IMG/VR virus record: IMGVR_UViG_3300021958_008605
Location: 13,220-77,219 of that record
Origin: a virus
Lineage: Duplodnaviria; Caudoviricetes
Length of the DNA: 64,000 nucleotides
Direction: 5' to 3' (one strand)
In this document: in pieces, positions 6,181 to 62,261 of the stretch
Position numbering within the stretch: position 1 is the first letter of the stretch
How the letters are laid out: every line of letters begins with the position of its first letter
Program-made: the position numbers and the translations under genes
Notes under the pieces: model-generated
Seen by the model: only the letters and a program-made list of their open reading frames with translations
Database searches by the model: none
What the model was told of the DNA's origin: nothing

Positions 6181-6197
6181 AATCTATTGTATTTGTA

Positions 6198-6206: not shown

Positions 6207-6214
6207 ATAATTTT

Positions 6215-10204: not shown

Positions 10205-10205
10205 A

Positions 10206-13959: not shown

Positions 13960-13966
13960 TTATTTT

Positions 13967-15424: not shown

Positions 15425-15430
15425 ATACTT

Positions 15431-24695: not shown

Positions 24696-24707
24696 ACCTT
24701 TTGTATA

Positions 24708-24716
24708 TATAAATAT
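24708..24716 (-). promoter_or_regulatory. ATATTTATA motif, putative late promoter
   Basis: Exact motif 13 nt upstream of ATG 24695. Confidence 0.55.
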
Positions 24717-24723
24717 ATGAAAT

Positions 24724-26213: not shown

Positions 26214-26504
26214 TTAATATCCTTCCATCCAATCGTTATATGATTGTGTAAAATCTGAACCTGTTGCATATCCATCAGGTGAAGAAAAATCATATTCTAA
26301 TCCATAAAATCCACCAGAAGGAATTTCAGAACCACTCAAAAAATTATATCTTTTACCTTGCGGTAACCGTCTTTTTGCCCAATGATGTAAATGTCTATCT
26401 AATGTACTACCTGATAGATTATTTAGATTCGATACATGAGAAATTGTAAAAAGACTCCCACTTTCTTCTGATATTATAAAAATTTCGTTACTTATATCTT
26501 GCAT
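26214..26504 (-). CDS. Small tail-fibre-associated protein
   Basis: LPQGKRYNFLSGSEIPS...EYDFSSPDGY resembles the small protein usually paired with the tail assembly chaperone. Four [ST]GS motifs in 96 aa. Confidence 0.55.
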   Translation of the reverse strand: MQDISNEIFIISEESGSLFTISHVSNLNNLSGSTLDRHLHHWAKRRLPQGKRYNFLSGSEIPSGGFYGLEYDFSSPDGYATGSDFTQSYNDWMEGY

Positions 26505-26521
26505 AATATTTTTTTTATTTT

Positions 26522-29500
26522 TTATCCTAAAGCTACAAAGTTTAATTCTTCTGGTACTCTTACACCATTACCATCATTATCTCTGATAGTAATATCACAA
26601 TAAGTAGTAGCTCCTGTACCACTTATTCGTGCTGCATGGTTGTTTACACTTTCTTCAGCTGCAAGACCATCCGCATCATTTCCAGATGAATGATTTGTTC
26701 TACCATAAGACATTACAAGTGGTGTCCACTTATATGAATTATGACCTGTAATAAAATTAATTCTTAAATTTTGACTATAATTACTATTAATGTTGGTAAA
26801 AGAAATTCCATCAACATTAACACAGGCGTAAAGAGTACCAGCCCCATTTTGTAATGTTGCAACACTTGTACTTTCATTAAATGTTACTGTACATTGTGCT
26901 CTACCTGCTGCATATGAATAAGTTCCTAAATCTAATTTTGCTCTCGTATAACCACTATTATCATAAGATGCATCTATTGCAGTACTTGTATCCATAGGTA
27001 AATATATACCATGTACTAAACCATCTATTGTTAAATTACCAATTAGTGTTGCAAAGGGGTCATAATCATTAGCGTTAGTATCTAACCTAAATACTTTTTC
27101 ATCATTAGAGTTTACTTGAAAACCCCCTGCATTTGTAGTCATACCAGCGGATACTGAATTAACGCTGAATGTTCCATCGTGGTTGAATGTTAAAGAAGCT
27201 TCTCTAAATGCATCATTACTACCAAAACCAGTTGTAACAAGGTCATAACTTGCTTCTATTCTTGGATAATAAGTAGTAGAATTTGCAAGGCTTACTGTTG
27301 TTGTCCTTGTTTGTGGTTGGGTCATTATGGTGGTTTGATTATTTGGAAAACTATCTCCAATAGGGTTATGTGATACTATTCCATTAGAAACATAGTTTTC
27401 ATATTTTGGAATTCTAAAAGTAAATACTTCTTCTTCAGTTTCAATTAACTCTACTTTTGCTACTAATTGTAAACTTATATCATTATTATCTTTAATATAA
27501 ATTTTACTTTGACCTTCTACAAGTTCAGTAGCAAATATTTGTTCATTATTATCTAACCAAAAACCATGAGTATCTGAAACTTCAACTATCAATCCATTAC
27601 TTAATGTTACTTTATATATTTCATTTACAATCCTCTTGTGAATCGATTTGATTTTAGATTCTACATATTGATTGGTTCTATAATCCCATACTTTTAATTT
27701 ATCATTTTTAGTAATATCTTTAGCTTTTTTAATAAAACCATTTGACAATAAAATTTTAGTATTTCCAATTACAGAAGAATATCCACCTTCAGTATCATTT
27801 CCATATGCACTAATACTCCATGTACCAATAGTAGCTATCAATGTATTAGAAGCATAAGTGTTAGAACTATAAATTTTTACACGAATGGTCATTGTCGCAG
27901 AACTCATAGCACCTGTTGCAGATACTTGGTTTCCGTTATTTTCATCATAGGTAAAGGTTAAAGAATGATTTCCAGCTACATTAGTCGAAAAAGATGTTAA
28001 AGCGTGTGTTAATGTACCACTATCTGAATCAGTATTACCTAAACCGGTTGGGGGCCCTACATCTCTTGTTTGAGTAGACATAGTAACGGTTTGACTTACA
28101 CTTGTTCCACTTGCATCTGGTGTTGGTAAAGAGGTATCAGTTGATAATGTTGCTCTTGGTACACCATTTGAATCATTTACCTGTATATATTCATCAGTTG
28201 CGTTTAATATTACATTACCTTCATTAGAAGTAATTGCATTTTCATCAACTATCCATCCTCCAAGTTCTGCATCTGATGTTATAATTCTACCACCAATACT
28301 AGCGTTTGATGCAGATAAGAATCCTTCACTATCTACAAAAAAGTCTCCACCACCAATTGTAATCGTACCACCTTGGATTGTAGAACCACTTACAATTCCC
28401 TCAAAGAATGCATCACCAGAAGATGATATAAATGTTTTCCAATCAGTACCATCATGATAACCTAAATATTGTTGTCCAAGATATAAACCTGCCGTATTAG
28501 TTGGTGCATCTGGTACATTATCTAACGCAAATGTTGCAGATGGTCCAAAGTCATATGATGTAGGATTTTCTAACCCACCTGTTGTAGCATTAATAGCATC
28601 AACACCATCTTGTGCACCATTTATATCATTTTGTAATGATTGTGTTGCTGAGTTTAATGAACTTACACTATTATCAAGTGATTCTGTTGCCGAGTTTAAT
28701 GAACTTAAAGAACTTGCTGCTGGTCCACCTGTTATTGTGATTGAACCTTCTATGTTTAAGTTACTACCATTCCATTGTAAAGCACCACCAGTACCGCCAA
28801 GATAAAATCTACCACTACTATCCATGTAAGTTTTCCAACCACTATTGTAGTAACCCATTTTATCATCACCCAAATGTAAACCATTTTGACCTGGTGTACC
28901 AATAGAATCTAAGTTGTTAGGATTAAAAGTATAAGAAGTCGGATTTTCTAAAGATGATGTAACACTTTCTAATTGAGATACTGCACCATCTAAAGAACTT
29001 ACATCATCTTGTAATGATTGTGTTGTAGAGTTAATTGAGTTTAAAGCACTTTGTGCCGAACCACCTGTTATTGTGATTGAACCTTTAATATCTAAATTAG
29101 AACCATCCCACTTTAAATGTCTTGTTCCACCTGAGTTTACAAGTGATGCTTTTGCAGTACCACTATCGTATCCTAAAAATATTCCTGCTCCTTCGTAAGT
29201 TGCAGCACCAATTGCAATTGATGGATTAGCATTAGAATTACCATGGTCTGAATTTAGTGCAATTACAGGATTAGAACCATCCGAACCAATATTTATTGTT
29301 CGGTTAGCATATACATCTTGAGCAAATAAAATATCAGTAGCTACTGAACTAAATTCTGCACCAAATTCTTCCCAATCTGTTGAAGAACCAGGAGTTCCCC
29401 AATTTGATGTTCCACTATCTGATGGATTTGATGCAAGATAATAAGTACTACTATATTCAACTATATCTCTTCTTGTTTCAGTATAATAATATGTTGTTCC

Positions 29501-39443: not shown

Positions 39444-39463
39444 ACTTTACCTTTAAAACTATA

Positions 39464-39495
39464 CAAATATACGAAAAATAATTTAAATATCCAAA
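39464..39495 (-). promoter_or_regulatory. Bacteroidota-type housekeeping promoter (-33 TTTG / -7 TATATTTG, 20-nt spacer) for primase and sbcCD
   Basis: Minus strand TTTGgatatttaaattatttttcgTATATTTG, 21 nt upstream of ATG 39443; matches the TTTG / TAnnTTTG consensus. Confidence 0.75.
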
Positions 39496-39929
39496 TCTTT
39501 TCTAAAAAATTTGCCTAATATATTATCATTTAACGATAATTCATCCTCTAAAACCTTATTTTGAAACAATTCTTCTACTTCATAATAGGTTAATGATTTT
39601 GGTGTTTTACAAAATCTAAGGATTTTTAACTCCAAACTATCATTTATTTTATCTTGATTACCAGTTTCTTTTCCAGCTTCGTGTTCATGGAACCACAGTT
39701 GAACTGCAGTATTTGAAGAACGATAATCTACCCATTTAGATTCTTTGATTACTTTTCTTTTTCTTTTGTACCCCTTTAGTGGTGGTAATGTTCTTTTTGC
39801 ATATAAGGATTTTTTCCCTATATAGTATTCACCTGTTTGGTGGTTTATTATTTTGTATATAAATCCGATAGTCCCCTCAGGCATATCTGATATTTCTGTT
39901 ATTGGTCTACCTTGGTAACTCCATCCCAT
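39483..39929 (-). CDS. GIY-YIG-like endonuclease of the T4-like phage type
   Basis: GFIYKI-N9-YYIGKK, conserved W..Y.SS, EE.FQ..VL, LNDNI. Start likely MGWSY at 39929. Confidence 0.65.
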   Translation of the reverse strand: MGWSYQGRPITEISDMPEGTIGFIYKIINHQTGEYYIGKKSLYAKRTLPPLKGYKRKRKVIKESKWVDYRSSNTAVQLWFHEHEAGKETGNQDKINDSLELKILRFCKTPKSLTYYEVEELFQNKVLEDELSLNDNILGKFFRKDLDI

Positions 39930-40488
39930 AGTTAAAAATTTTAAAGTCATTTTCATACCTTTCTTTTACCCAATCTATCATCCAATCTTCGCTATAAAAG
40001 GTTTTATAATAACCCTCTTGTTTTAGATTTGGATGTCTATCATATATTGGATTTCGGTTCAAATGAGGTAACTTATAATTATTAACACCTATTGTGTTAA
40101 AAATATGTTTTATATCTTCTTTTAAGTTTTCATACTTTCCTATAAAAGAAATCTTTTTTTGTTTATTACTTCCAGCTTTTGTAAAAAAATACTGAGGCAT
40201 TAACCATATATCACTTTTACTTTCTTTTGTTAATAAATCTGAGAATGTTGATTTATAGATACCTTTTCTTATACCATGTTCATATACAGAAGCTAATCGT
40301 GTATATGGATTTCTTACAAATGTAAAAATAAAAAAATCATCTACATCCTCAAATGCTCTAATAGAATCATGTGATTGTAAAATTTTAGTACCAGGTATTT
40401 TTGATAATACATTTGTAATTGATGTACCACCTGTTTTAGGTATGTGAATAAATGCCCATTTCTGAGCTTGGTTAATGAGTAAACTCAA
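39907..40488 (-). CDS. Sulfotransferase family 2 protein (PAPS-dependent carbohydrate sulfotransferase-like)
   Basis: FIHIPKTGGTSI (5'-PSB loop), FVRNPYTRLASVY (3'-PB), FIGKYENL, LPHLN, DFKIFNY. Confidence 0.85.
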   Translation of the reverse strand: MSLLINQAQKWAFIHIPKTGGTSITNVLSKIPGTKILQSHDSIRAFEDVDDFFIFTFVRNPYTRLASVYEHGIRKGIYKSTFSDLLTKESKSDIWLMPQYFFTKAGSNKQKKISFIGKYENLKEDIKHIFNTIGVNNYKLPHLNRNPIYDRHPNLKQEGYYKTFYSEDWMIDWVKERYENDFKIFNYGMELPR

Positions 40489-40498
40489 AATGAAAGTT

Positions 40499-40681
40499 TT
40501 AGCGTGAAACAGAATCAGAATATTTTTTCTGATTTAATTTTCCTCCTCTTGCATTTGCAAGAGCTTTATCATCTTTGTGAAGTTTGTTTGTAGAATCAGC
40601 TGATATAGGAGTTTTATCTTTACCCTTATCTGCTAATTTAGAAAATTCTGATTTGTTGTATAAGTCTTGTATTGATGCCAT
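40499..40681 (-). CDS. Small Lys-rich hypothetical protein (60 aa)
   Basis: Start MASIQ at 40681 has AAGGAG SD and an ATATTTATA motif upstream. Confidence 0.65.
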   Translation of the reverse strand: MASIQDLYNKSEFSKLADKGKDKTPISADSTNKLHKDDKALANARGGKLNQKKYSDSVSR

Positions 40682-40703
40682 AATTAGTATCTCCTTTGTA
40701 TTA

Positions 40704-40712
40704 TATAAATAT
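40704..40712 (-). promoter_or_regulatory. ATATTTATA motif, putative late promoter
   Basis: Exact motif 23 nt upstream of ATG 40681. Confidence 0.6.
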
Positions 40713-40715
40713 AGT

Positions 40716-41846
40716 TTATGTATCGAAACGAACAATAAAGTTCACATCGTAATCTGGTAGGTTCTTTATTGGTGTTGGTAATTTAGCAACTGCAACCATA
40801 TCCCCATCATTATCATACAACCCAATAGTTGATATATAAGTTGTTAAATATGAGCCTGTTGGGTCTGTTGATGCATTAGTAAAATAATCATTCCAAGTAC
40901 CAGTTGTAGAACCATATGAACCTGTATAAGATGATTTTTGTGATATATCTCTTACTTCTTTTATTTTTTTAGTTTGTGCAGAACTTACATTTGTAACAGC
41001 AGTTGTTGTGAAATCATATGAACCACTTAAAGTTACATCAACTGCTGATGGGTTTTGTGAATAATTAAATTCACCAGCTTTACTTGAAATTAAAACCTCG
41101 GTTTCGTGTATTGTTTTTGTACTTTTAAATGTACAACTATATTCACTAAGTTCTGATAATCCAGTAAATACTAACAATCCATCGGAGTAAAATATATTAC
41201 CATATTGTGTTTGGTCAATATTCAATCCTTCAAACTCTAATGGAGATGCCGTCTCAAGAGTATTATTTTGAAAATCAAGCCTAACAACTGTAACAGTATT
41301 GGTATCACTTCCAAATGTTAGTACAGCTACTCCTGTTTGAAAGTCCATACTTGTAATTGTTCCTGTAAACAAATCTCCATCAGCATCTTGTATAACAATA
41401 CTACTATCTTGTAAATCAACTGATACTACAACATATATAGGTGTGTTTGCTGTTACATTTCCTTGAGAATCATCTACATAAACAACACCATCATTATCAG
41501 TAAACTGTAAACTACCTGGTTTAATTCTTTCACCATACTTATTCTGTGGAATTGGAATAACATAAATAGTATCACTTATATTTCTTTTAGTAGTAGCATC
41601 CGATGGGTCTTCAAGGCTTCCGAATAAGTTAAATATATTATCTTGATTTTGAAAATATTTTGATTTTATTGAAGAATATAAAGAAGAAGTAACAAAACCA
41701 CTTTGAGTAACAGAGTTATCTATATCATAATATCCCTCACCAAGAGATGCAGATATGACAGAATAATTAGAGTGTGTTACTGTCCAATTCTTATGAACCT
41801 TAAAACTCCTACGATTGACACTCGATTTTGGTATTGTTTTTAACAT
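40716..41846 (-). CDS. Virion structural protein, tail-collar-like C-terminus (paralog of 41935..43140)
   Basis: GERIKPGS, YGNIFYSDG, EFNYSQNPS, YISTIGLYDNDGDMVAVAKLPTPIK. Confidence 0.6.
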   Translation of the reverse strand: MLKTIPKSSVNRRSFKVHKNWTVTHSNYSVISASLGEGYYDIDNSVTQSGFVTSSLYSSIKSKYFQNQDNIFNLFGSLEDPSDATTKRNISDTIYVIPIPQNKYGERIKPGSLQFTDNDGVVYVDDSQGNVTANTPIYVVVSVDLQDSSIVIQDADGDLFTGTITSMDFQTGVAVLTFGSDTNTVTVVRLDFQNNTLETASPLEFEGLNIDQTQYGNIFYSDGLLVFTGLSELSEYSCTFKSTKTIHETEVLISSKAGEFNYSQNPSAVDVTLSGSYDFTTTAVTNVSSAQTKKIKEVRDISQKSSYTGSYGSTTGTWNDYFTNASTDPTGSYLTTYISTIGLYDNDGDMVAVAKLPTPIKNLPDYDVNFIVRFDT

Positions 41847-41864
41847 AGTGATATTACTCCTCTA

Positions 41865-41873
41865 TATAAATAT
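41865..41873 (-). promoter_or_regulatory. ATATTTATA motif, putative late promoter
   Basis: Exact motif 19 nt upstream of ATG 41846, just downstream of a terminator; GAGGAG SD follows. Confidence 0.6.
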
Positions 41874-41881
41874 GTAGAAAT

Positions 41882-41907
41882 AAAAAACCCCATTCACGAT
41901 GGGGTTT
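41882..41907 (-). terminator. Intrinsic terminator after 41935..43140
   Basis: Minus strand AAACCCCAT-cgtga-ATGGGGTTT followed by TTTATT. Confidence 0.85.
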
Positions 41908-41934
41908 GTTATGTTTGAAATGTGTACCTACGGT

Positions 41935-43140
41935 TTAGAAATCAAGTTTTACTTTGATTAATACTTCTTTATCAAATGATTTAGCAATTGGTTGTGATGT
42001 TTTAGATACTGCAATCATTTCGTTTGCATCATTATATAATCCAACAGTTGTAATAAATGTATTTGGATTTTTTTCAAATGTTGATTCTGCGAATGTTCCA
42101 TCTGAACCTGTTACAAATGTTGGGTTGTTAGAGAAGTTAAATTCTCTGTTAGTTGCTCTTACAAAGTAATGTGAAGTAGAAACATTTTCTGTTCTTCTTG
42201 CTTCAAAATCAGCACCTAACTGAATTGATTCAACTAATCTTAAATGGTTTTTAGCACTTGCATTTGTTGCTAAACTTCCTTTTAAATCTCTACCATGAAC
42301 ACTTCCAAGTGAACTTGAAACTGCTGTTGGGTTAAGTACTATTAATCCTTGGTCAGGGTAGAACAGTCCAAATCCTTCTCCATTTACACCATAGTTTGTA
42401 TTGATTGTTGCTGAGTTCTCTGTACCTAAGTTAAGTGAACCACTTACAACATTAAATACTCTACCTGCTTTTCCAACTGTATCATCAAATTTCTTTCCAC
42501 TATCATCTATTAATGTAGTTGTACCCAATGAACCACTTAAAGTAAGTGACCAGTTTCCTGCATCCATTTTTTCTTTATATCTTGCTCTTGCAACATTGAT
42601 TACATAGATGGCATCTGAATCGTGTGTTCCTGCAGCTGATGAAGATACAAATGTAAATTTAGAATCATCTTGGTCTAAAAGGATTGAACGATACTGATTG
42701 TAAGTTGCTTTAGTTTCTAAAGTTGAGTTATCATCTCCAGATAATGCTGGGGAACCTTTACCCAATCTATTCCCATACGCAACTGCAAACTGTACTGATG
42801 ATGTTGCTGCTGTATCGTAAACATTATAGTAATATTTACCACTTGCTGCTGATACTTGAGCAGATGAGGTATAGAAAGATGTTAAACTTCCAGTATCACC
42901 ACTCCAAAGACCAGTTGTAACAACTTCAACCTTACCATTAATTTGGTCAAATTCGTTAAATCGTTTATAAATTCCCGTAGTAATTGTACCACCTTGTCCT
43001 GCTAACTTATCACCACCAACTAAATATTGGTTAATGATAGTGGCAAGTTGTTCAGAGGTAAGATTACCTTGTTGAGCAGATAAGTAATTTGCTAACTCTT
43101 GGGTTAAGTTTGCTCCTGCTTGTCCTGTTATTTGTGCCAT
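41935..43140 (-). CDS. Virion structural protein, tail-collar-like C-terminus
   Basis: KEKMDAGNW, FGLFYPDQG, EFNFSNNPTF, FITTVGLYNDANEMIAVSKTSQPIAK. Confidence 0.6.
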   Translation of the reverse strand: MAQITGQAGANLTQELANYLSAQQGNLTSEQLATIINQYLVGGDKLAGQGGTITTGIYKRFNEFDQINGKVEVVTTGLWSGDTGSLTSFYTSSAQVSAASGKYYYNVYDTAATSSVQFAVAYGNRLGKGSPALSGDDNSTLETKATYNQYRSILLDQDDSKFTFVSSSAAGTHDSDAIYVINVARARYKEKMDAGNWSLTLSGSLGTTTLIDDSGKKFDDTVGKAGRVFNVVSGSLNLGTENSATINTNYGVNGEGFGLFYPDQGLIVLNPTAVSSSLGSVHGRDLKGSLATNASAKNHLRLVESIQLGADFEARRTENVSTSHYFVRATNREFNFSNNPTFVTGSDGTFAESTFEKNPNTFITTVGLYNDANEMIAVSKTSQPIAKSFDKEVLIKVKLDF

Positions 43141-43158
43141 TTTATTTTTTCCTCTTTA

Positions 43159-43782
43159 TTAACTTGGTTGTACATATGTTATTGTTACTGGAATCGATTG
43201 TGAACCACCAGTCTCATTTCCATAAACAGTAATAGTTGTTTTAACTGTTGCTGTTATGTTAGGATTAGGAATGAAAGTAAATTCAAGTCCTGTTTCAACT
43301 GCGGCTGTTGCAGTTAATTCATCCCCTAAGAATGTTGGTGTTGTTCCATTTTCTATACCACTACCTACGATAGAACCTGCGTTTTTATTAGCAAGTATTA
43401 CTGTATATCCACTTTGTGTGTTTCCACTTGGTGAAGTTGTTGGTGATAAGTTCACCTGTCCACCATTTTGAGTTGTAGAAATTGAAGGGACTCCAAACTC
43501 AACTTTAGGAATCTTAGTTGTACCTTTTGGTAAAGTAACTAACTTGTATCTTAATACTTGAGTTTCATCTGGTGAAGCTTCAGTTACAGGTATTGCTCTA
43601 ATAGCTGCATCATAATAAGCACTTCCTTTTGGATGTGCTGGTTCGTAAAGGGTATAATCTATTTCATCATCACCCAAAGCGAACTTTGTGATGTTTAAAC
43701 CTTGTCCAGCTGCTAACTTCTCTCTACCCTTCTTAGTAAGAATTGCATCTACTGTGATTTCGGTGTTATCTAAATAAGCCAT
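43159..43782 (-). CDS. Virion structural protein, tail-collar-like N-terminus
   Basis: AILTKKGREKLAAGQGLNITKFALGDDE resembles the N-terminus of P2 gpH-type tail-collar domains. Confidence 0.55.
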   Translation of the reverse strand: MAYLDNTEITVDAILTKKGREKLAAGQGLNITKFALGDDEIDYTLYEPAHPKGSAYYDAAIRAIPVTEASPDETQVLRYKLVTLPKGTTKIPKVEFGVPSISTTQNGGQVNLSPTTSPSGNTQSGYTVILANKNAGSIVGSGIENGTTPTFLGDELTATAAVETGLEFTFIPNPNITATVKTTITVYGNETGGSQSIPVTITYVQPS

Positions 43783-43813
43783 AATTTAAATTCCTTGTTA
43801 ATGTTATTCAATA

Positions 43814-43822
43814 TATAAATAT
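43814..43822 (-). promoter_or_regulatory. ATATTTATA motif, putative late promoter
   Basis: Exact motif 32 nt upstream of ATG 43782. Confidence 0.55.
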
Positions 43823-43841
43823 AACTATTTTATAAAATCAT

Positions 43842-46800
43842 TTAATCTACCTCTAATATTGGTTCTCCACTACCTCTACCACTCTTGTTTACTCTTAATG
43901 TATTCGGGTTTGTAGTAAATGTTTGTACAGGTGAACCACCATCTAAAGTAGTTGCCTGTGTTTGTTTTGAACCATTAAAGAATGAGTTTTCTAAACCAGT
44001 TGTTAAATCCCCAACATTTCTATAATGAGATGGGAAATATCCATTTAATGGAGTTACAGAAACAATATCACCTCCACTTGGAGTTGATGTTTCTAATCCA
44101 TTAGAACCAGTAAATGGTAAAATGGTTACTTTGTTTCTATATTTTGTTTGTGTTACAAATTGTGTACCTTGAGATGCATCATCTGATATATTTTCTGGTA
44201 CATCTTCTGTATAAGATTGTTTTACTAAAAATACTTTTACTCTTTCTTTTATTCTATTTCCAGATACATCTATGTAATTTCTTATAGAATGAGAACCACT
44301 TCCATATAATCCAAATCCTAATCTTGATATTCCATCAGGATCCATTCCTATTTGTTCATATGCAGTTGAATCATATTGACCTTGTACTGAACCTGTGATT
44401 TTAGCATCGATATTAAATACAATACCACCCATGGTTGAATCTTTATCTCTTGTAATACTACCAACTAAGTTAATATCGGATTCTGCAGATATGGTTGTAG
44501 AATAATCAGGATTTGTTCCAGTTAAAGTTACATCACTTTCTGCATCTACAACTCCACTATATTGTGGGTTTGTTCCTTGTAAATTTATATCAGTTTCTGC
44601 ATCTACAACTGCGTTATATTGTGGATTTTCACCATTTAGATTTACATCTTCTTCAACATCAATAGTAGTACTCCAATTTCTTTTTACAGAAGTTGGTTTA
44701 TTCCATTTTGTTTTACTTCTTTCTAAAATATGTGGTTCAATTAATAATCCACTTGATGTAATTGCTCTATGTGGTACAAGTGATTCTAAAGTTTCAAATA
44801 AAGATTTATCTATATATCTTACTAATTGAATATATTCTTGGAAATTAAGAGAGTATCTATCAAAGTAATAATTTCTTAATTGTTTTAATTCGCTGTACTC
44901 ATCCGAGTATTCATCTGCTGGATTACCAATATAATCATCTATACTAAACTCACCCAATCCTTTTAGAATATCTAAATTAATTTCTTTAATTGGTGAAAAG
45001 AATAACCCTAATCTATTTGAATCAACAGGTGATTGGTCAAATGATTTTTTGGTTGCTCTTGTTCTATAATTTAAATCTAATATTTTAGTTTGTGATTCAA
45101 ATCTTATTTTATTACCAAAACTAAATCCTGTTGATGGAACATTTGCAGTTACATCTCTATCATATGGTGTATATTGGTATGGATAACTACTTTCGTTTGT
45201 AAATCCACTAGCAACAGATGAAGTACAATAACTTGTTATTATTGCAACATTTTTAATATCAACATCACCACTTGTATGCCTATTCTTTGGATATTCAAAA
45301 TCATTTCTAAATATTAAATCATGAGTTGAAGCTGATATATGATTTCCATCAACTGCATCTGGAAATAATGTGTGATTATCAACTCTTGATTCTGATAGTG
45401 GTGTTCTCCACAATCGTATTTCATCAACAGAAGCAGTAAGTGTACTACCTCCTACTTTTATCTCACTACCACTAGTCCATCCACTTACTCCACTTATAGT
45501 TAAACTACCACTTACATTAGTTCTAATTCTTTCTTGAAATCCTTCTTTTGCGTAGAATGTAAATACATCATTTCCACTTGTTGTTTCTTTAGTTACAACA
45601 ATTTGAGTATATCCATCATTAAATAATGGAGCAGTTTCAGTTGATTCACTAACCAAAGTACTTCCACTCATTACTCTAAGTTCTACTTTTCCAAGAGAAC
45701 CTGTATCTTTTAATAAATGTAGAGACCAATCTGAACCGCTTAATATTTCTTGGTCTTGTCTTTGTTCTGTATTTAATCTTAATTCAACAGAGTTTGGATA
45801 ATCTGTACTTAATGTATTACTAAATGGTTTCCAAGGTATTGTTATTGCTGATGAACCACTTATGTTAATAGATGCTGTTCTATCTTCAAATGTAAATTTA
45901 GTTGTACCACTTTGTGTTGTATCTTTTGGTCCACCAAATTCCATTACAGTTAATAAAGAATTAGGAATACCATAACAACTCATAGCCGCATGAAGTGCTC
46001 TCTTAGTTCCTTTGTGTTTGTAAAGATATGGTAAGTTATTTAAAATTCTTCTCCAAATTTCTTGTTGTCTATCTTTACCACTCATTTCAGTTACAACAGT
46101 ACCATCGGTATGTTTACCAAAAGCATATTCCCAAAGGAATTGAGATTGTGCTCCCATATCAGCATCAAATCCAAGTGATTCTAACATATGATAAACTAAA
46201 TCATTTGTTATTCCATTTTCATATTTATGTTCTAATTTTTTTGAATTAGAAATACCCTTTATATGTGTCCATAAAATATCAAAGTGTTGTCCAACCATAT
46301 CAAAGAATAAAACAAACTCTTGTCCTTTATCATCTTCTTGAATGTGTTGTGGTAAGTTATAAGTAAACCTTGATGTATTGGTATTATCATAATTAGTTGC
46401 AGAATCAATAGCACCATTATACCAATCAACAGCAGATGAACTTAGTGGATGTATAATACTACCTGTACTATTTGTTTTTGGATATGTAAAAGTATCAGCC
46501 GAAGAAGATTCATATAAGAATTTTTCAAAAGAATCAAATCCTTTTTTAATATTGTTTATTTTTGTAAGTTGTGAGTTAGCCTCATTTGTTACTGAAACAG
46601 ACCCCGTCCAATCGGTACCTGTTGTTAATAAATTATATCGTGTATCATACGAGTTTATTAGTTTTACTTTATAGTAAAAATTTTCTACTCTTTCTACTGC
46701 TGAAGAATACTTTACAAAATCTTTCCAATTGTAATCTTTATTTCCTTTAACTAAAACACTATCTACAAAAGAAGTAGATGCTGAAACATAATTTATATTT

Positions 46801-49313
46801 AAGTTATCTTCTGAGAAGTTACTTGATGATACAAATTCATTTACAAGTTCAGTTGAAGATGTAGAACCACTTGCTATTAAATCATCAAGTATTTGATAAC
46901 CAATAGAATCACCGACTTCCAATTCAAAGTTTGGTGTTAATGGTGTACATTTAGAAGATACATCATCTATAATTGTTATCTGGTCTATTAATGGTATTGA
47001 TTGTACCTTAGAAAGCCAAACTCTATCATTTGATTGTATTTCTCTTGGCAGTGGTTCATATAGTTTTAATACTATTGATTTTTCTACATTTCTATATTTT
47101 ACTTCATTAGTTTCTTCATCTCTATATTCTTCAGAAAATGTAGTTTCATCAACACCCCATGTTGAAATTAATTTATTATCACCATTTCCAATATGTAAGT
47201 AATGAGTTAATAAAGGAGATATATAATCACTAAAATCAAAATCATTAAAGTTTTTTATAAATGATTCCTTTAAATCATTAACAACCTTTCCTCTTCTTAA
47301 TCTTAAATCACCCTTATCAAATGTAATTTTTACTTCTTCAGTTTTACCTGCAGTTAATTCATTCCCTTCTTCGTTGTAAGGAATAAATAAAAGTTTAAAA
47401 ACAGTAACATCTTTATCGATATCTAATGTTTCACCTGCCAATTTAAGTATTTCTGCTACATTTAACTTTTGTTTTCCAGCCTTAGATACTTTTGTTAATA
47501 ATGTATTATCTGATTCTTTACCAACAAATATTTTTATGTAGTTAGTATTAATTGATTGCCAAGAAATATCAAAGTCAACATCAAATTCTTTAAAATCAGC
47601 TCCTACAATATTTTGTGGATAATTAATATGTGTAATATCAGGTCCAGGTAAATAAGCTTTACTTAATACATTTATTAATACTTTTTTATTTTCTCCACTA
47701 CCAGATTTTGATGATACTGGTTGTAAGTAAAGTGTATATTTACCAACACCATTTGTAAAATCAGAATTTTTAAGAACAATAGAACCACCTCTTCCAATTT
47801 CTCTAACAACATCACCTAAAACATAAATAACCTTATCAGCATATTTTGTTTCATAATCAACTGTAACTGTATCTGAACTTGCTATGTTAAATACAAGGTT
47901 TGTGTTCTTAACATTTATAGTTGGTTTTGTTTCACTAGAAGTTATATTTTTGTTTCCTGTTATTTTAATTTCATTTAATCCAGGCTTTAATTCAAAATAT
48001 GAATCTATTGCTGATATGTCTTTTCTCTGATTAGTACTATATACAATAGAATATTCTACTTTATGAGTGTAATCACTAATATTAACTCCTTCAAACTTAA
48101 TATAACAATTATTTCGTTTAACATTAAGACCAGCCTTAGTTACTCGTAGTTTAAGTTGTTTACCAGAAACAATACCTTGTTGTCCATCACTTGTAGTATA
48201 TTTAATAAACTGATTTTTAGTTGTAAAAGATATATCAGAATCAATGTTAATATCAAATTGATAAACTTTTGGGTCTATTGGTATTTGTTCAAATGTAAAA
48301 AATAATGGATAGTTAGTATATACTTGAGCACCAACAATTCCTGAATTCGTATTTAGTTTTGGAACAGGAACAGGTATTCGTTCTCCTTTTACTACCTTTG
48401 TAACCTGTAATTCATAATAAGTGAAATTTACATTTCCAAATGTTAGTGATGGTTTTTTAAAAGTAGTTGGAGGAAGATACTTATCATATCCAAATGTAAT
48501 ACCAGTTGATGGCCTATCATAATCAATAGCAGGTACAGGTTGGTTTCCAAACCCACCCAAAGAAAATAATGTTGGATTATTTCGTTGAGCATTTATATTA
48601 AACTCAAATGATGGTTTAAAATCAATATCCTTTTCAAACTTTATCCTATCTTGAAAATCTGCAATAACAAAATCATTATCTAAATCTAAATCTAAAACTG
48701 GTTTTATTGGTTTTAAAAGTTGTCGTTGAACTGTCTTTACAAAATAAGTTTCATTAGAAGTAATACTTGTATTAGAAATAACTTGGATTTTCTTTTCCTG
48801 TAATAATTCTTTTTCTTTAAATTTTAATCCTAATTTAATATCAGTACTATCAACTCCATCTACAACAACTTTACCAACTTTGCCATCTGCCTTAATATTA
48901 AACGATATTTCTTTGTTTAAATTACTTGATAACGGTGGTGGGTTGTAAAAACAACTACCATCATCTCTTGTTGCGTTTGGATTATAATTTTTAGCATTGG
49001 GGTCTGTACATCCTCCTATTAAAGTTGAACCCGGTCCACCATTTACAATTAAATCATTTGGGTCAAATCTATTTGTACCATCTCCAAGTTCTTCGTCTAA
49101 TCTTCTAAAATTTTCAAGATTGTTTTGAGTTTGTAGATTTCCATCAATTCCAAGTGTAACAGTTCCATCAGAGTTATAGACAGCGGATGATGCTACCACA
49201 GTATCACCAGGTAACATCGGTGGTGGTGGTGAACCAGGATTTGAATCTATGATAACTCTAGGAGTCCCAGATACATAATCATCAAACATGTCTTTTTCTC
49301 TTAATTTATCCAT
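43842..49313 (-). CDS. Large baseplate wedge-like protein (P2 gpI / T4 gp7-like core) with Ig-like and LamG-like segments
   Basis: NNLPYLYKHKGTKRALHAAMSCYG (gpI-like KGT motif); LamG-like SVDEIRLWRTPLS; directly downstream of gp25 and gp6 homologs. Confidence 0.6.
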   Translation of the reverse strand: MDKLREKDMFDDYVSGTPRVIIDSNPGSPPPPMLPGDTVVASSAVYNSDGTVTLGIDGNLQTQNNLENFRRLDEELGDGTNRFDPNDLIVNGGPGSTLIGGCTDPNAKNYNPNATRDDGSCFYNPPPLSSNLNKEISFNIKADGKVGKVVVDGVDSTDIKLGLKFKEKELLQEKKIQVISNTSITSNETYFVKTVQRQLLKPIKPVLDLDLDNDFVIADFQDRIKFEKDIDFKPSFEFNINAQRNNPTLFSLGGFGNQPVPAIDYDRPSTGITFGYDKYLPPTTFKKPSLTFGNVNFTYYELQVTKVVKGERIPVPVPKLNTNSGIVGAQVYTNYPLFFTFEQIPIDPKVYQFDINIDSDISFTTKNQFIKYTTSDGQQGIVSGKQLKLRVTKAGLNVKRNNCYIKFEGVNISDYTHKVEYSIVYSTNQRKDISAIDSYFELKPGLNEIKITGNKNITSSETKPTINVKNTNLVFNIASSDTVTVDYETKYADKVIYVLGDVVREIGRGGSIVLKNSDFTNGVGKYTLYLQPVSSKSGSGENKKVLINVLSKAYLPGPDITHINYPQNIVGADFKEFDVDFDISWQSINTNYIKIFVGKESDNTLLTKVSKAGKQKLNVAEILKLAGETLDIDKDVTVFKLLFIPYNEEGNELTAGKTEEVKITFDKGDLRLRRGKVVNDLKESFIKNFNDFDFSDYISPLLTHYLHIGNGDNKLISTWGVDETTFSEEYRDEETNEVKYRNVEKSIVLKLYEPLPREIQSNDRVWLSKVQSIPLIDQITIIDDVSSKCTPLTPNFELEVGDSIGYQILDDLIASGSTSSTELVNEFVSSSNFSEDNLNINYVSASTSFVDSVLVKGNKDYNWKDFVKYSSAVERVENFYYKVKLINSYDTRYNLLTTGTDWTGSVSVTNEANSQLTKINNIKKGFDSFEKFLYESSSADTFTYPKTNSTGSIIHPLSSSAVDWYNGAIDSATNYDNTNTSRFTYNLPQHIQEDDKGQEFVLFFDMVGQHFDILWTHIKGISNSKKLEHKYENGITNDLVYHMLESLGFDADMGAQSQFLWEYAFGKHTDGTVVTEMSGKDRQQEIWRRILNNLPYLYKHKGTKRALHAAMSCYGIPNSLLTVMEFGGPKDTTQSGTTKFTFEDRTASINISGSSAITIPWKPFSNTLSTDYPNSVELRLNTEQRQDQEILSGSDWSLHLLKDTGSLGKVELRVMSGSTLVSESTETAPLFNDGYTQIVVTKETTSGNDVFTFYAKEGFQERIRTNVSGSLTISGVSGWTSGSEIKVGGSTLTASVDEIRLWRTPLSESRVDNHTLFPDAVDGNHISASTHDLIFRNDFEYPKNRHTSGDVDIKNVAIITSYCTSSVASGFTNESSYPYQYTPYDRDVTANVPSTGFSFGNKIRFESQTKILDLNYRTRATKKSFDQSPVDSNRLGLFFSPIKEINLDILKGLGEFSIDDYIGNPADEYSDEYSELKQLRNYYFDRYSLNFQEYIQLVRYIDKSLFETLESLVPHRAITSSGLLIEPHILERSKTKWNKPTSVKRNWSTTIDVEEDVNLNGENPQYNAVVDAETDINLQGTNPQYSGVVDAESDVTLTGTNPDYSTTISAESDINLVGSITRDKDSTMGGIVFNIDAKITGSVQGQYDSTAYEQIGMDPDGISRLGFGLYGSGSHSIRNYIDVSGNRIKERVKVFLVKQSYTEDVPENISDDASQGTQFVTQTKYRNKVTILPFTGSNGLETSTPSGGDIVSVTPLNGYFPSHYRNVGDLTTGLENSFFNGSKQTQATTLDGGSPVQTFTTNPNTLRVNKSGRGSGEPILEVD
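44461..44660 (-). repeat. 57-bp (19-aa) tandem repeat, about 3.5 copies
   Basis: VDAETDINLQGTNPQYSGV / VDAESDVTLTGTNPDYSTT / ISAESDINL; tgcatctacaact recurs at 44541 and 44598. Confidence 0.85.
48952..49013 (-). repeat. GCTDPxAxNYNPxAxxDDGSC Cys-pair repeat (one copy here, two in 49313..51208)
   Basis: GCTDPNAKNYNPNATRDDGSC. Confidence 0.85.
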
Positions 49314-51208
49314 TACTTAATATTCCTTATATTCACTGGTCTATCTACGAAATCACCAGGATTAGTATATGGGTTTATTGGGTCTCTTCCACCATCATCA
49401 AATAATACTTCATCTCTAAATGAACCACCTCCTCCACCAGAGCCTCCACTTGAACCTCCTGATGGAAGTCCTGCTCCAATTACAATTACATTATTATTTT
49501 CTTCAATTCCACATTTTTCTAATTTAATAAATTTCATTCCAGGTGGTAATATTAAACTGTTTTCTTGAGCACACACCAAGTATTCAGAACCAGGTGGTAC
49601 ACCTTCACTTGTGAGTATATTACCAACTGCATCTTTATATTTAAAACTCAAAGTCTGACCTTTACTTATAGATATTGTTCCTCCATCAATTTCATCAAAT
49701 GGATATGGTCTACCAATATAATCATCTGCATAACCACCACCCAACCAATCACCAGCAGGACGTTTTCCATTCCACCCATCATACACAATTGGTTTACCTG
49801 TAAATCTTTTTATTTCTGTTTGATTTATAACCCTATATGTAAATAATTTATTGGCAATGGGTTTTAGTTTTGGAGTTGTTCTAACATCTCCACTAAATTT
49901 AATACTACCATCATCATCATATGTTATCTCAAACATATCAAATTCAATACCTGAAAGAAGATTAGCTGTACCATTTAGTTTATATTTAATACTACCCTTT
50001 TCTGACCAAACATAGAATTTTTGAGTTTTTGTTGGTGTAGTATTATCATATTTACAACTACCATCATCCTTCGTTGCTTTAGGGTTATAGTTTAAAGCAC
50101 TAGAATCAGTACAACCTTCAATATCAATAGGGTCATCATTGTAGATACAACTTCCATCGTTTTCCTGAGCAGATGGATTATAGTTTTTTGCATTAGGGTC
50201 TGTACATCCTCGTACTGTTGTATCACTTGGCTCTGTTGAATCGTACAATGTATTTGATACTGACGATTTTAATATTTGTTTAACTTCATCAAAAGTTATT
50301 TGTTCTTCTGGTGTTAGTATATTATCATCTTGAATATCTCTTTTAGGTAAGTACTTTGAAATTATATTAGTAATAGATTGTTCCATTACTTGTTTAATTG
50401 TATCAATAGAAAGTTCAATTACATCTAACTTATTTTTTGGTTTACCATAATTGATGTTACTAATATCCCACTCTCTATCATCAATAAAATAATTGACAGA
50501 TTCTATAAATTTATCTCTTAAAATTTTTATAAAAATTTCAATATTTTCTATTTTAAATTCTTTTTTAATCAAAGATTGATATGTTTTATTATCTTTTTGC
50601 TTTCCTTTAATCAAACTAAAAGTTTTTAAAACTTTTTCTGTTGTTACATTTTCTATAAATTGTTTAGCAAAATAAATTGTATCATCTCTAAACTGACCTT
50701 TCTTTGTTAAAACATCATATCTTTTTTCTAAATCTTTGTTTGGTAGTTTTTCTTTTTTAATTGGAACAACTCGTATCTCTGTTCTTGATGGAGATATTTC
50801 ATGTATCCAAAGTTTATCAATATCATTTACTTCCGAACCTGCTCTTCTATTTAATAATGTTACCTGTGTTTTAAAAATACCATTTTCATATCCAGCTTCT
50901 CTTACTAACTTTTCTATATCAACAATAAACTCAGAAGCATCGTTTTTCTTTTTTGTAAAGTTATTATTAGATATTAAAAAATAATCTCTAATATTTTTAT
51001 CATTTAGGTGGATATATCTTACAAGTTTTCCATCATCTCCTTGTGGTAATTGATTATCATTAGAATCTAATAAAATAAATTCAATCATATCAGCATTACC
51101 AAGACCAAAGAATGACTTACCAATTTCCCTCTCAAAGATTTGTCTATCTTCAGATTCTACCTTATATCCTCGTCTTTCAACTATATCTTTAAATCCTTCT
51201 ATAGCCAT
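49313..51208 (-). CDS. Virion structural protein with two GCTD...DGSC repeats
   Basis: Inside the baseplate module; LWIHEISPSRTEIRV; Gly-rich C-terminus. Confidence 0.55.
   Translation of the reverse strand: MAIEGFKDIVERRGYKVESEDRQIFEREIGKSFFGLGNADMIEFILLDSNDNQLPQGDDGKLVRYIHLNDKNIRDYFLISNNNFTKKKNDASEFIVDIEKLVREAGYENGIFKTQVTLLNRRAGSEVNDIDKLWIHEISPSRTEIRVVPIKKEKLPNKDLEKRYDVLTKKGQFRDDTIYFAKQFIENVTTEKVLKTFSLIKGKQKDNKTYQSLIKKEFKIENIEIFIKILRDKFIESVNYFIDDREWDISNINYGKPKNKLDVIELSIDTIKQVMEQSITNIISKYLPKRDIQDDNILTPEEQITFDEVKQILKSSVSNTLYDSTEPSDTTVRGCTDPNAKNYNPSAQENDGSCIYNDDPIDIEGCTDSSALNYNPKATKDDGSCKYDNTTPTKTQKFYVWSEKGSIKYKLNGTANLLSGIEFDMFEITYDDDGSIKFSGDVRTTPKLKPIANKLFTYRVINQTEIKRFTGKPIVYDGWNGKRPAGDWLGGGYADDYIGRPYPFDEIDGGTISISKGQTLSFKYKDAVGNILTSEGVPPGSEYLVCAQENSLILPPGMKFIKLEKCGIEENNNVIVIGAGLPSGGSSGGSGGGGGSFRDEVLFDDGGRDPINPYTNPGDFVDRPVNIRNIK
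50053..50209 (-). repeat. Two GCTD...DGSC repeats
   Basis: GCTDPNAKNYNPSAQENDGSC and GCTDSSALNYNPKATKDDGSC. Confidence 0.85.
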
Positions 51209-52404
51209 GATAATTTTTTAAGTTGATTTGGAAATAGTTTATAAATTAAAATAGAAAACTTTTCTCCAAATTTATGTAATTTTCTTCCTCTACGATTTTC
51301 TGTTGGTAATACTCCCATTTCATATGCCATATACTCTGACCAATCTTTTACAAAATAGTTGTAAACAAATTTAGCAAATGTTTTGTTTCTCTTTAATCCA
51401 TTTACGATTGGTGTTGCCCAAATCCAATAACCATACATTACTTCTGGTTTATGTTCTAGTACAATATCACCAAACTTATCATCCATTTCATAAATAAACT
51501 GTGGCATGAAACCTTGTTCATATAATTCAGTACAAATAATTTTTTTCTTTTTAGAGTTAGCACTTGCACTTGCTGTTGCTTGAGCCGCTTCTACTTGTTG
51601 ATTGGCAGCTTCAATTTGTTGAGTAGCAATTTGTGCTTGGTTTTTCATTTGTTGATTAAGAGTTTTAATATTCTCTGTAAGGTTTTTTACAATATCTTTT
51701 TGTGTTGTTAATTGTGATGCTAGTGTTTCTTTTTGTGCACCCAATCCTCTTACTTGAGCAGTTAATGAAACTCTTTCTATACCCTCTTTAGTTCCTTTTA
51801 AAACAGAACTTTGGAAATCACTAAGTAACACTTGATATCTTGCTTGAAGTTCTCTAAACTCTCTATCTCTTTGTAATACTTCTTCTGTTTTAGCAGCAAC
51901 ATCCGCAATCAATTGGTCTATTTGTGTTTGTAATGTTGATATTTGATTTAATGCCGCATCTCTTTCTTGTGTTAAATCTTTTATTTGTTGTGATAAATTC
52001 TGATTTATTTCTTTCTGTTCAATCAATTTATCTAATCTAACAAACTGACCTCGTGATTCTCTTGGTTTATTTATTAATTCATCAACCTTTATATCAAGTG
52101 CTTTTTCTAATTCTGATTCTGTATAATAAGGTCTTTCTAATGATGAAGCTGTTTCTCCACTAAAAGAAGTTTGTTCTACATTTTGTTCTTCTTGTGGTTC
52201 TAGTAAATCTGTTTTTATTTTTGGATTTTTTTGTTTACCTCGAATTGGTTCTTCTCCAAATGGTTTTTCTATTTTTTTGGAGGTTGGGTTAACTTCCTTT
52301 CCATCCTTTTTACGCACAACAATACCATCAGAGTAATCTCTCTTTATAGCCTTTGAACCTTTTTTTAAAAGTTCATCAATTCTAAATCTATCGTTTAACG
52401 CCAT
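51199..52404 (-). CDS. Coiled-coil protein with a C-terminal IICTEL domain
   Basis: About 190 aa of heptad coiled coil, an A/Q/S linker, then KKKKIICTELYEQG...D..FG...P....GYWIWA.P. Confidence 0.6.
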   Translation of the reverse strand: MALNDRFRIDELLKKGSKAIKRDYSDGIVVRKKDGKEVNPTSKKIEKPFGEEPIRGKQKNPKIKTDLLEPQEEQNVEQTSFSGETASSLERPYYTESELEKALDIKVDELINKPRESRGQFVRLDKLIEQKEINQNLSQQIKDLTQERDAALNQISTLQTQIDQLIADVAAKTEEVLQRDREFRELQARYQVLLSDFQSSVLKGTKEGIERVSLTAQVRGLGAQKETLASQLTTQKDIVKNLTENIKTLNQQMKNQAQIATQQIEAANQQVEAAQATASASANSKKKKIICTELYEQGFMPQFIYEMDDKFGDIVLEHKPEVMYGYWIWATPIVNGLKRNKTFAKFVYNYFVKDWSEYMAYEMGVLPTENRRGRKLHKFGEKFSILIYKLFPNQLKKLSWL

Positions 52405-52405
52405 T

Positions 52406-53467
52406 TTATTTCTCTACGGTGAAAGTTAACTCTTTATCAGTAAAGTATTCAATCACACCACTTCTATTTACTTTTATTTCTATATAGTAATCTCTGTTAT
52501 ATTCAAAGTTACTTAAATTTAATTTAAAATAATTACCATTGGAATCACAACTAACTTTTGTATAGTTATCATTAAATGGAACCACAACTTCATTTGTTAC
52601 CGCATCTTTAATTTGGTAATAAGTAGTTGATGGTAAATAATATACATCTGTATAAGCATATTGATTGGTGTAATTTTTAAGAGGATATTTTTCTCTCCCA
52701 AAAACTCTGATTGTAGGTTTACTTCCTCGTTTATATCTTACTTTTAATCTCTTAAATGTGATATGAATATCATCGGCAGTTAATGCACTAAGAGAACCAG
52801 TAGAGAAAGAAGAATCATCCCAACCAATTCTTAACTTCGGTTGGTATATAGTATTTGTTTCTTTTGAAAAAAACTTTAATTGTCCATAATCTTCGGTATC
52901 ATTTTCTTTTGCTGAAGAATGTTTTATAATCCAACCCTCATTTGGTATTGAACTACTTATCCAAGAGTTAAGTGGAGTTAGAACATCCATCTCTATATCA
53001 GTTGACTCATATGAAAAAGATTGTGAAGCGGCTGAACCTGTGTACCATGTTCCACCCTTACCATTAAATGAACCAGTTGTTCCACTTGCAAAATCAGTTC
53101 CTAACCAAGTTAATGAGGTTGTTCTCTTTTCCCAAGAACACCCATCAGTACTTATGTTATCAAACCTTGTTCCTATACCCATATCCCAAGATTGAGAAAC
53201 AGGATAAGCATAAATTGTATAATCAGTTGGTATTTCATTTGATTCACATTCTTTTAAAATAAGTTCAGCAGAACTCATTGTTATCTCACCACTTACTATT
53301 GATTGTGATATTGGAGCAGTATCAAACTTAATTAATGTTCTTGCGTTATCTTTTAAGTTTCCATAATAAGTTTTGGAAACTTCTAATATTTCATCAAACC
53401 CAGTATTTTGTGTGGGTTGTTGTAAATATATTGTTGTATCTTTAGATGCTGTTACGAAATAGTACAT
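52406..53467 (-). CDS. Virion protein with a DNRLRE/CBM96-like beta-sandwich and a C-terminal Ig-like domain
   Basis: KDTTIY...NTGFDEILEV...RTLIKFD...SAELIL...AYPVSQSWD..G.G...CSW. Confidence 0.5.
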   Translation of the reverse strand: MYYFVTASKDTTIYLQQPTQNTGFDEILEVSKTYYGNLKDNARTLIKFDTAPISQSIVSGEITMSSAELILKECESNEIPTDYTIYAYPVSQSWDMGIGTRFDNISTDGCSWEKRTTSLTWLGTDFASGTTGSFNGKGGTWYTGSAASQSFSYESTDIEMDVLTPLNSWISSSIPNEGWIIKHSSAKENDTEDYGQLKFFSKETNTIYQPKLRIGWDDSSFSTGSLSALTADDIHITFKRLKVRYKRGSKPTIRVFGREKYPLKNYTNQYAYTDVYYLPSTTYYQIKDAVTNEVVVPFNDNYTKVSCDSNGNYFKLNLSNFEYNRDYYIEIKVNRSGVIEYFTDKELTFTVEK

Positions 53468-61505: not shown

Positions 61506-61507
61506 AA

Positions 61508-62260: not shown

Positions 62261-62261
62261 A

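Follow-up and report, generated by a model that had tools for sequence, protein, structure and literature searches.

In a 64,000-nucleotide (nt) stretch of DNA from an uncultured, marine, T4-like phage (IMG/VR record IMGVR_UViG_3300021958_008605, positions 13,220 to 77,219; the whole stretch is called the window here), the tripeptide [S/T]-G-S is found 4-7 times above chance in the outward-facing tail fibre and baseplate proteins. We propose that [S/T]-G-S serves the phage as an O-glycosylation sequon on its outer tail proteins, a reading to which we give a probability of about one in two. The source contig is a 77-kb fragment with a CheckV completeness of 23%. All window genes lie on the minus strand (GC ~30%) and fall into three blocks: a T4-type baseplate, large family-less proteins together with a protein of 2863 amino acids (aa), and downstream genes for sugar-nucleotide synthesis, glycosyltransferases (GTs) and tailoring enzymes. 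The closest deposited relatives by gp6 (38-43% identity) are Flavobacterium phage immuto, Microcystis phage Mel-JY01 and the uncultured phage LR756508; a complete 276-kb relative, G001, encodes a fibre 70% identical to the window fibre. The observations comprise motif statistics, site conservation and turnover, distribution among proteins, fold context and gene co-occurrence. New from the window are the turnover in deep orthologs, an unbiased gene-profile screen, the mapping of motifs onto immunoglobulin (Ig)-like domains, the exclusion of a DNA-level signal, and the use of phages P-SSM2 and S-CBS4 as controls.

Fifteen window virion proteins together contain 56 [S/T]-G-S motifs, while 14.5 are expected from composition (3.9-fold). 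When all 8000 tripeptides were ranked in these proteins, SGS came first (31 vs. 7.7, p=2e-10) and TGS second (25 vs. 6.8, p=6e-8), and both pass Bonferroni correction. A mirror control that is free of composition effects gave TGS:SGT = 25:10, and 31 SGS were found against 9 SSG and 9 GSS. Since the excess is directional, composition and low complexity cannot explain it. After 5000 shuffles of the N-terminal half of the 2863-aa fibre the mean was 3.4 (sd 1.8, maximum 11) against 25 observed (z=12), and the 1823-aa baseplate/wedge-associated protein (43842..49313, minus strand) has 13 motifs vs. 2.2 (z=7.3). The excess that a sequence-only reading had picked out by eye thus survives correction for composition, with SGS and TGS as the top two tripeptides. 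It is very unlikely in our estimate that the motif has no function at all and reflects neutral clade history or low-complexity S/G-rich loops, with DNA or a small molecule as the substrate of the associated GTs; neither the directional asymmetry nor the top-two rank is a neutral composition effect.

The approximately 35 enzyme and replication open reading frames (ORFs) of the window contain 2 motifs vs. ~3.7 expected (~0.5-fold). The sequence-only reading had called the motif rare in enzymes, which is true as a count, but this rarity is mostly a matter of composition and it is the ratio of ~0.5-fold vs. 3.9-fold that matters. It had also listed related variants as frequent: in virion proteins [S/T]-A-S (2.4-fold) and [S/T]-Q-S (2.3-fold) are indeed enriched, but [S/T]-S-S is not. 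In homolog alignments SQS, TQS and TAS substitute for SGS in identical columns. The motif is flanked by hydrophobic residues at -1 (50%) and +3 (48%) vs. a background of 31%, and no Asp preference is seen at -1. At the DNA level the 56 motifs are encoded by 23 distinct 9-mers. A DNA-level signal was considered and rejected: near-total avoidance of GATC, together with generic Ser-Gly codon context, accounts for the GGT/AGT codon skew inside the motifs. GATC is found once in window positions 1-64000 vs. ~169 expected per strand, while CTAG is low (32) and GTAC normal (200). The near-absence of GATC is strong restriction-site avoidance, and as a result Gly-Ser(TCN) is encoded as GGT-TCN throughout the window.

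The largest motif carrier is the giant 2863-aa protein (26522..35113, minus strand), with 26 [S/T]-G-S motifs vs. 7.2 expected. It belongs to a family of >383 metagenomic homologs, many of which end in a C-terminal Peptidase_S74 chaperone domain, and it is therefore assigned as a tail fibre/spike. The motif-rich proximal shaft (residues 218-1522; 30548..34462, minus strand) contains 25 motifs vs. 3.3 expected, and the distal half (residues 1531-2863; 26522..30523, minus strand) has 1 vs. 3.9 expected at a similar S/T/G content. The same arrangement is found across the family: [S/T]-G-S is enriched 2-5-fold in all 120 fibre homologs among the matches listed, the enrichment falls from 5-9-fold in the first 750 aa to ~1-fold by residues 1500-2250, and in the distal 250-1000 aa it is 0.6-1.4-fold. 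We concluded that the fibre shaft is tagged and the receptor-binding end untagged. As a separate observation, an excess is seen again in the last 250 aa of the fibre homologs P0001-P0120 (mostly Peptidase_S74; 3.6-fold, 185 vs. 52), in contrast to the preceding 750 aa; it may represent a conserved family motif. In the window fibre, a Hint/intein-splicing-like domain (PF14890, just below the Pfam cut-off; 27365-27739, residues 2459-2583) occupies the C-terminal region where most relatives have the self-cleaving Peptidase_S74 domain, and it may be an alternative self-cleavage module.

The motif is also concentrated in smaller proteins of the same region, all encoded on the minus strand: a 376-aa virion protein without a Pfam or PHROG family (40716..41846; 3 vs. 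0.71 expected), a 401-aa virion protein (41935..43140; 4 vs. 0.83 expected), a 353-aa baseplate protein adjoining the gp6-like gene (52406..53467; 3 vs. 0.49 expected), and a 96-aa candidate virion protein downstream of the fibre gene, which has no Pfam or PHROG family match (26214..26504; 4 vs. 0.30). The G001 homolog of the 401-aa protein (61225-62451) has 7 motifs and is among six genes specific to motif-positive phages. The counts made by eye agree with ours (25 + 1 in the giant protein and 3, 4, 3 and 4 in the smaller ones), with 13 in the wedge protein in place of about 12; the early estimate of ~3 expected in the first ~1520 aa of the fibre compares with 3.3 calculated, and all example motifs were found in their places.

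The distribution within the virion was examined in the complete genome of G001. Motif carriers are the fibres, outer baseplate proteins, the tail sheath and a gp13-like neck protein. The sheath has 5 motifs vs. 1.26 expected, every one of them within its variable middle region; the parts matching the conserved core of T4 gp18 carry none. The major capsid protein has 0 motifs vs. 0.88 expected, and the motif is absent from the portal, tube, prohead protease, terminase, tape-measure-like protein and DNA polymerase of G001. Candidate acceptor sites in G001 are restricted to outward-facing virion proteins.

The enrichment extends to relatives. In structural modules it is 3.9-fold in the window (vs. 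~0.5-fold in the window enzymes), 4.3-fold in immuto (p=2e-20) and 6.5-fold in Mel-JY01 (p=7e-24), and Rhodothermus phage RM378 shows 2.6-fold genome-wide (p=2e-8). The structural modules of T4 (0.65-fold), PA5oct (0.89-fold), P-SSM2 (0.88-fold), cyanophage Sf-FR1 (~1.4-fold) and S-CBS4 (1.25-fold) are negative. Over complete genomes, the four positives have 2.4-2.6-fold vs. 0.64-1.6-fold in negatives. The clade is very abundant, with >600 matching IMG/VR stretches; hosts of motif-bearing phages include cyanobacteria and Rhodothermus, and the probable host phylum of immuto is Bacteroidota. In Mel-JY01 (PP395634) SGT outnumbers TGS genome-wide (96 > 46), yet its baseplate/fibre module has TGS:SGT of 20:2, so some other proteins of that phage must be SGT-rich.

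Is the motif a fold element or a tag? One alternative is a clade-specific structural motif, i.e., a favoured turn, bulge or strand cap for folding or stability, whose link to GT genes would be due to shared ancestry. An AF2 (AlphaFold2) model of fibre residues 640-1240 (m296e987adff3; 30-sequence alignment, pLDDT 75) predicts tandem Ig/cadherin-like beta-sandwich domains, with protocadherins, the RTX adhesin extender 6xi1 and the S-layer protein SbsB as top Foldseek matches. In this model the 11 motifs of the stretch are placed at strand/loop boundaries, which would suit a structural role, as would the hydrophobic residues at -1 and +3, but at non-equivalent places in different Ig-like domains. 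Self-blastp of the fibre found no internal sequence repeats. An element of a single repeated fold was rejected as the explanation on three grounds: the absence of sequence repeats, the non-equivalent Ig-domain positions, and the overlap of sites in deep orthologs at the random expectation. The sequence-only reading had described the motif as spread over many unrelated folds, and its occurrence in unrelated proteins and at non-equivalent Ig-domain positions agrees with that description.

Some sites are under evident selection. At fibre sites 772, 793, 851, 942, 985 and 1097, 87-100% of 119 homologs share the motif, with a local identity around these six core sites of only 56-75%. Ser and Thr interchange at position 1 (site 851 is SGS in 59 sequences and TGS in 53) and position 3 remains Ser. 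Among 30 fibre sequences, the conservation of position-3 Ser is 0.77 vs. 0.57 for other Ser residues (p=0.017), and the motif Gly is conserved no more than other Gly residues. In the alignment of the 353-aa baseplate protein (A4, 30 sequences; 18 motif columns), site 223 is found in 28/30 sequences and the other two have TAS; the AF2 model of this protein is weak (pLDDT 62) and usable only near site 223, which it places in a confident loop. Such purifying selection on individual sites speaks against a motif without function, while the near-invariant sites, together with the lack of special conservation of the motif Gly and the fact that the positives form one clade, are compatible with a structural element.

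Other sites turn over. The 30 fibre sequences have 42 motif columns, of which just 11 fall at sites of the query. A ~230-aa fibre insert (residues ~400-630; 33224-33916) without counterpart in the 119 homologs holds 5 motifs. In orthologs of the wedge protein (23-31% identity), Mel-JY01 has 11 motifs, immuto 5 and LR756508 2, against 13 in the query; 1.3-2.2 are expected in the query, Mel-JY01 and immuto proteins. The number of sites shared between these orthologs equals the random expectation, even at a tolerance of ±5 columns. The positions are therefore fully turned over in the wedge orthologs, and the density is retained. A fold-dictated element would hold its position, so that the observed turnover fits a tag selected for number. 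We concluded that selection acts on copy number per protein and on some individual sites.

These results make the structural alternative rather improbable. Besides conserved density at non-conserved and non-equivalent positions, the motif appears again in unrelated proteins and in an insert specific to this lineage. It is missing from homologous fold types of T4, P-SSM2, Sf-FR1 and PA5oct and, in spite of an equal composition, from the distal half of the fibre. The strict TGS>SGT directionality and the Ser-only position 3 are unexpected for a generic turn. Judged by sequence comparison, [S/T]-G-S behaves as a tag: it is found in unrelated proteins, it keeps density without position, it appears in outward-facing parts only, and it is absent from T4-type fibres and baseplates of phages outside the clade. 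The sequence-only proposal of a recognition sequon stands in so far as the motif behaves as a recognition tag and not as a fold element, but the second part of it, that the adjacent GTs read the sequon, does not: those GTs are not what travels with the motif.

The adjacent genes form the window part (1..25923, minus strand; Pfam) of a ~39-kb soluble glycan-synthesis cluster, which lies directly downstream of the fibre gene and extends 13 kb upstream of the window on the contig. It includes three GT7-LamG fusions (17589-19037, 19441-20907 and 21625-23085), a GT2 (23086-23928) and a methyltransferase (23916-24695), all on the minus strand. The three fusions are paralogous, each with a beta-1,4-galactosyltransferase-like domain and a Laminin_G_3/ConA-like lectin domain, and relatives carry 2-3 copies. 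Other contents are radical-SAM enzymes (including B12-radical-SAM), UDP-Glc dehydrogenase, epimerases, DUF5672 and carbamoyltransferases. No polytopic membrane ORF, flippase, polymerase, ABC exporter or initiating transferase was found in the cluster, from which it follows that the acceptor should be cytoplasmic. Synteny of the cluster is retained in the close relatives L001 and L003. The GT7-LamG cluster is absent from immuto, Mel-JY01 and RM378, all of which have the motif excess; immuto has just one sub-threshold GT7C match, and in Mel-JY01 and RM378 any GTs nearby are of other kinds. This counts against the adjacent cluster as the reader. Nor does the excess accompany GT clusters generally: cyanophage P-SSM2 has no excess despite a large GT cluster, and siphovirus S-CBS4 has none despite GTs in its head module. 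The adjacent cluster is lineage-specific and, though a candidate builder or decorator of the glycan, no conserved correlate of the motif.

A different set of genes does follow the motif. In a profile screen (ORFs of at least 100 aa detectable by tblastn), 6 of the 238 G001 ORFs had homologs in every one of the other three positive genomes and were missing from all four negatives. The six genes are four virion proteins, a GT4 (member 1) and a downstream GT2. The two enzymes belong to a module at 204.7-208.8 kb of G001, ~130 kb from the fibre, in the order GT4-GT4-small ORF-GT2. Immuto and Mel-JY01 share a syntenic block of a nuclease, two adjacent GT4-type genes, a GT-A/GT2 gene and a methyltransferase; RM378 has GT4 member 1 and, adjacent to it, a remote homolog of member 2. 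Member 2 thus occurs in immuto and Mel-JY01 as well as, in a remote form, in RM378. The two GT4 genes are distant paralogs, adjacent in 22/22 viral loci, and both retain the E-x7-E signature, perhaps with the exception of RM378 member 2. The module is absent from T4, P-SSM2, Sf-FR1 and PA5oct. Records G002-G004 lack the GT4 pair but are just 63-67% complete. S-CBS4 was tried as an independent lineage and rejected, its GT4 being just 22% identical, without a pair and without a motif excess. Overall, the GT4/GT2 module accompanies the motif in four positive genomes and is missing from five negative ones, S-CBS4 included.

A tag could also serve another purpose, such as phosphorylation, acylation, a radical-SAM-type change, or docking of an assembly chaperone or decoration protein. 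Such a tag would evolve in the same manner, and the 39-kb cluster does hold radical-SAM enzymes and methyl-, sulfo- and carbamoyl-transferases. However, the radical-SAM, sulfotransferase and carbamoyltransferase genes are not common to immuto, Mel-JY01 or RM378, and in the profile screen no kinase, acyltransferase or other non-GT enzyme was specific to motif-positive genomes, GT4 and GT2 being the sole enzymes that were. We regard this alternative as unlikely.

Several points weigh against the proposed O-glycosylation sequon. First, the module is not on this 77-kb contig, and its presence in this phage is deduced from the relative G001 by way of the 70% identical fibre. Second, the module sits among DNA-metabolism genes (nuclease, ribonucleotide reductase (RNR) and polymerase-like genes), a setting expected of DNA glucosyltransferases, and DNA hypermodification by phage GTs is known (bioRxiv 10.1101/2023.12.21.572611; PMC13326640), which supports DNA glycosylation as the function of the module. 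Third, G001 has a second, divergent ThyA-family ORF (G001:C1:186869-187219; 26.8 bits, 233 aa). Fourth, cyanophages without the GT4-GT4-GT2 module have a mild genome-wide excess of 1.3-1.6-fold, which would suit a motif without function. Fifth, LR756508 (484 kb) encodes at 305435-306736 a homolog that shares 31% identity with GT4 member 1, and shows only a weak excess (baseplate region 95001-145000: 13 vs. 8.0, p=0.06). Sixth, the motif-positive genomes all fall within a single broad clade (gp6 identity 38-43%; the capsid proteins of RM378 and G001 share 40% identity), so that co-occurrence of motif and module is not independent evidence and could be explained by joint inheritance. No phylogenetically independent gain or loss of motif or module was found; the scan of gp6 relatives for module loss took the 80 best in viral contigs, which were all close relatives on short contigs. 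Finally, glycosylation of these proteins is an unproven deduction at the level of chemistry.

The second ThyA-family ORF of G001 accompanies a canonical ThyA and could be a nucleotide hydroxymethylase. It has no counterpart in the other three positive phages: no ThyA-family gene is present in Mel-JY01 or RM378, and the one in immuto is the canonical ThyA. A hydroxymethylase therefore does not travel with the module, which argues against DNA glycosylation. The near-total avoidance of GATC likewise suggests DNA that is exposed to restriction rather than bulk-hypermodified. A Tet_JBP search gave no match, but it had no positive control and is uninformative.

We return to the O-glycosylation sequon as the preferred reading. 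The literature search turned up no publication that deals with the motif or with glycans on the virions of RM378, Mel-JY01 or immuto. What we infer from the evidence above is the existence of a modification on the tag, its nature as a glycan, the acceptor residue and the identity of the enzyme that reads the tag. In the proposed mechanism, [S/T]-G-S and the weaker [S/T]-A-S and [S/T]-Q-S would form a short linear tag on predicted solvent-exposed edges of strands and loops in the fibre shaft and outer baseplate and, in relatives, in the sheath and neck. The most likely reader of the tag would be the soluble, phage-encoded GT4-GT4-small ORF-GT2 module, which would act in the cytoplasm and O-glycosylate a Ser/Thr of the tag while the virion proteins fold or once they have folded. 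The lineage-specific 39-kb cluster would contribute unusual sugars and either lengthen or decorate the glycan (GT7-lectin enzymes, sulfo-, carbamoyl- and methyl-transferases, radical-SAM), and the receptor-binding distal half of the fibre would stay untagged. Taken in full, the proposal is that a very abundant aquatic T4-like clade, with hosts in Bacteroidota, Cyanobacteria and Rhodothermota, coats its tail exterior with phage-made O-glycans at [S/T]-(G>A,Q)-S, that the cytoplasmic GT4-GT4-GT2 module reads the sequon, that site density evolves like a viral glycan shield, that the fibre tip remains bare, and that the 39-kb cluster makes a complex, possibly sulfated glycan. This fuller version is put forward more tentatively, at slightly less than even odds.

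The proposed system can be compared with known ones. To our knowledge, mycobacteriophages are the only phages for which experiments have shown that phage enzymes glycosylate the virion, and we know of no defined tripeptide sequon there. Freeman et al., in Cell Host Microbe in 2023 (cited in PMC12619734 and PMC12801897), reportedly described mycobacteriophage virions glycosylated by phage-encoded GTs. The likeness lies in soluble, phage-encoded GTs that modify, within the host cytoplasm, virion proteins of the same phage and produce an outward glycan coat, all of which is a prediction here; the differences are that the mycobacteriophage hosts are actinobacteria and the phages siphoviruses. Its glycans are attached at the C-termini of capsid and tail-tube subunits, according to PMC12619734. 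In G001, by contrast, capsid and tube are without the motif. Soluble GTs without export or lipid-carrier machinery are present in our phages as well (GT7 x3, GT2 and DUF5672 in the window; the module in G001).

Chloroviruses encode the enzymes that glycosylate their capsid protein and do not depend on host machinery for it. The nearest solved relative of GT4 member 1 is chlorovirus B736L (3oy2, E=3e-12, C-terminal Rossmann domain); B736L (PDB 3oy2/3oy7) is likewise a virus-encoded cytoplasmic GT-B enzyme, with similarity only in the nucleotide-sugar-binding domain. Unlike our phages, the chlorovirus infects a eukaryotic alga and, as general background, its glycans are N-linked to Asn at atypical sequons of the major capsid protein. 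GtfA/GtfB carries out cytoplasmic Ser O-glycosylation in short S-x-S type repeats of fibre adhesins on the Gram-positive surface, and here too two GT-B (GT4-like) genes are adjacent. GtfB is non-catalytic, whereas both phage members retain E-x7-E, and the phage acceptor would be a dispersed tripeptide on folded Ig-like domains instead of a long disordered repeat. No GtfA/GtfB chain was found in PDB sequence and profile searches with the GT4 pair. A catalytic plus non-catalytic pair of the GtfA/GtfB type was rejected on the conserved E-x7-E of both members and the missing sequence match.

Bacteroidota O-glycosylation also uses a three-residue O-sequon on many unrelated proteins, but it is known as a periplasmic process with a lipid-linked glycan, whereas virions assemble in the cytoplasm. 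The phage motif differs by inspection from the Bacteroidota sequon D-[S/T]-[A/I/L/V/M/T], as had been pointed out from the sequence, and identity of the two was rejected since the motif is [S/T]-G-S, has no Asp preference at -1 and is carried by cytoplasmically assembled proteins. By analogy only, the eukaryotic proteoglycan Ser-Gly attachment site resembles the motif, and the cluster has GT7, UDP-Glc dehydrogenase and a sulfotransferase.

If the proposal is true, a three-residue sequon would make phage glycoproteins predictable from sequence, and a function could be given to the large, enigmatic glycan loci of marine phages, to which a role in modifying the host surface or DNA is usually ascribed (PMC12801897). 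It would also bear on how abundant aquatic phages evade sticking, grazing, proteolysis and recognition, and a compact set of soluble enzymes that O-glycosylate a portable tag might be used for glyco-engineering. The cultured phages immuto, Mel-JY01 and RM378 make the idea directly testable.

Some further window genes complete the description, all on the minus strand. The inner baseplate genes have few or no motifs: the gp25-like gene (55492-55923) has 0 [S/T]-G-S and the gp6/J-like gene (53467-55488) has 1 vs. 0.75 expected. A 423-aa protein (57140..58411) is a marginal case with 2 vs. 0.78 expected. A sulfotransferase gene (Sulfotransfer_2; 39907..40488) keeps its place in relatives and is a possible glycan-tailoring enzyme. 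At 35344-38502, one 1052-aa ORF fuses a Metallophos (SbcD/gp47-like) N-terminus with an SbcC/Rad50-like ATPase; SbcD-like and SbcC-like subunits are usually separate, and the same 1052-aa fusion ORF was found in relatives.

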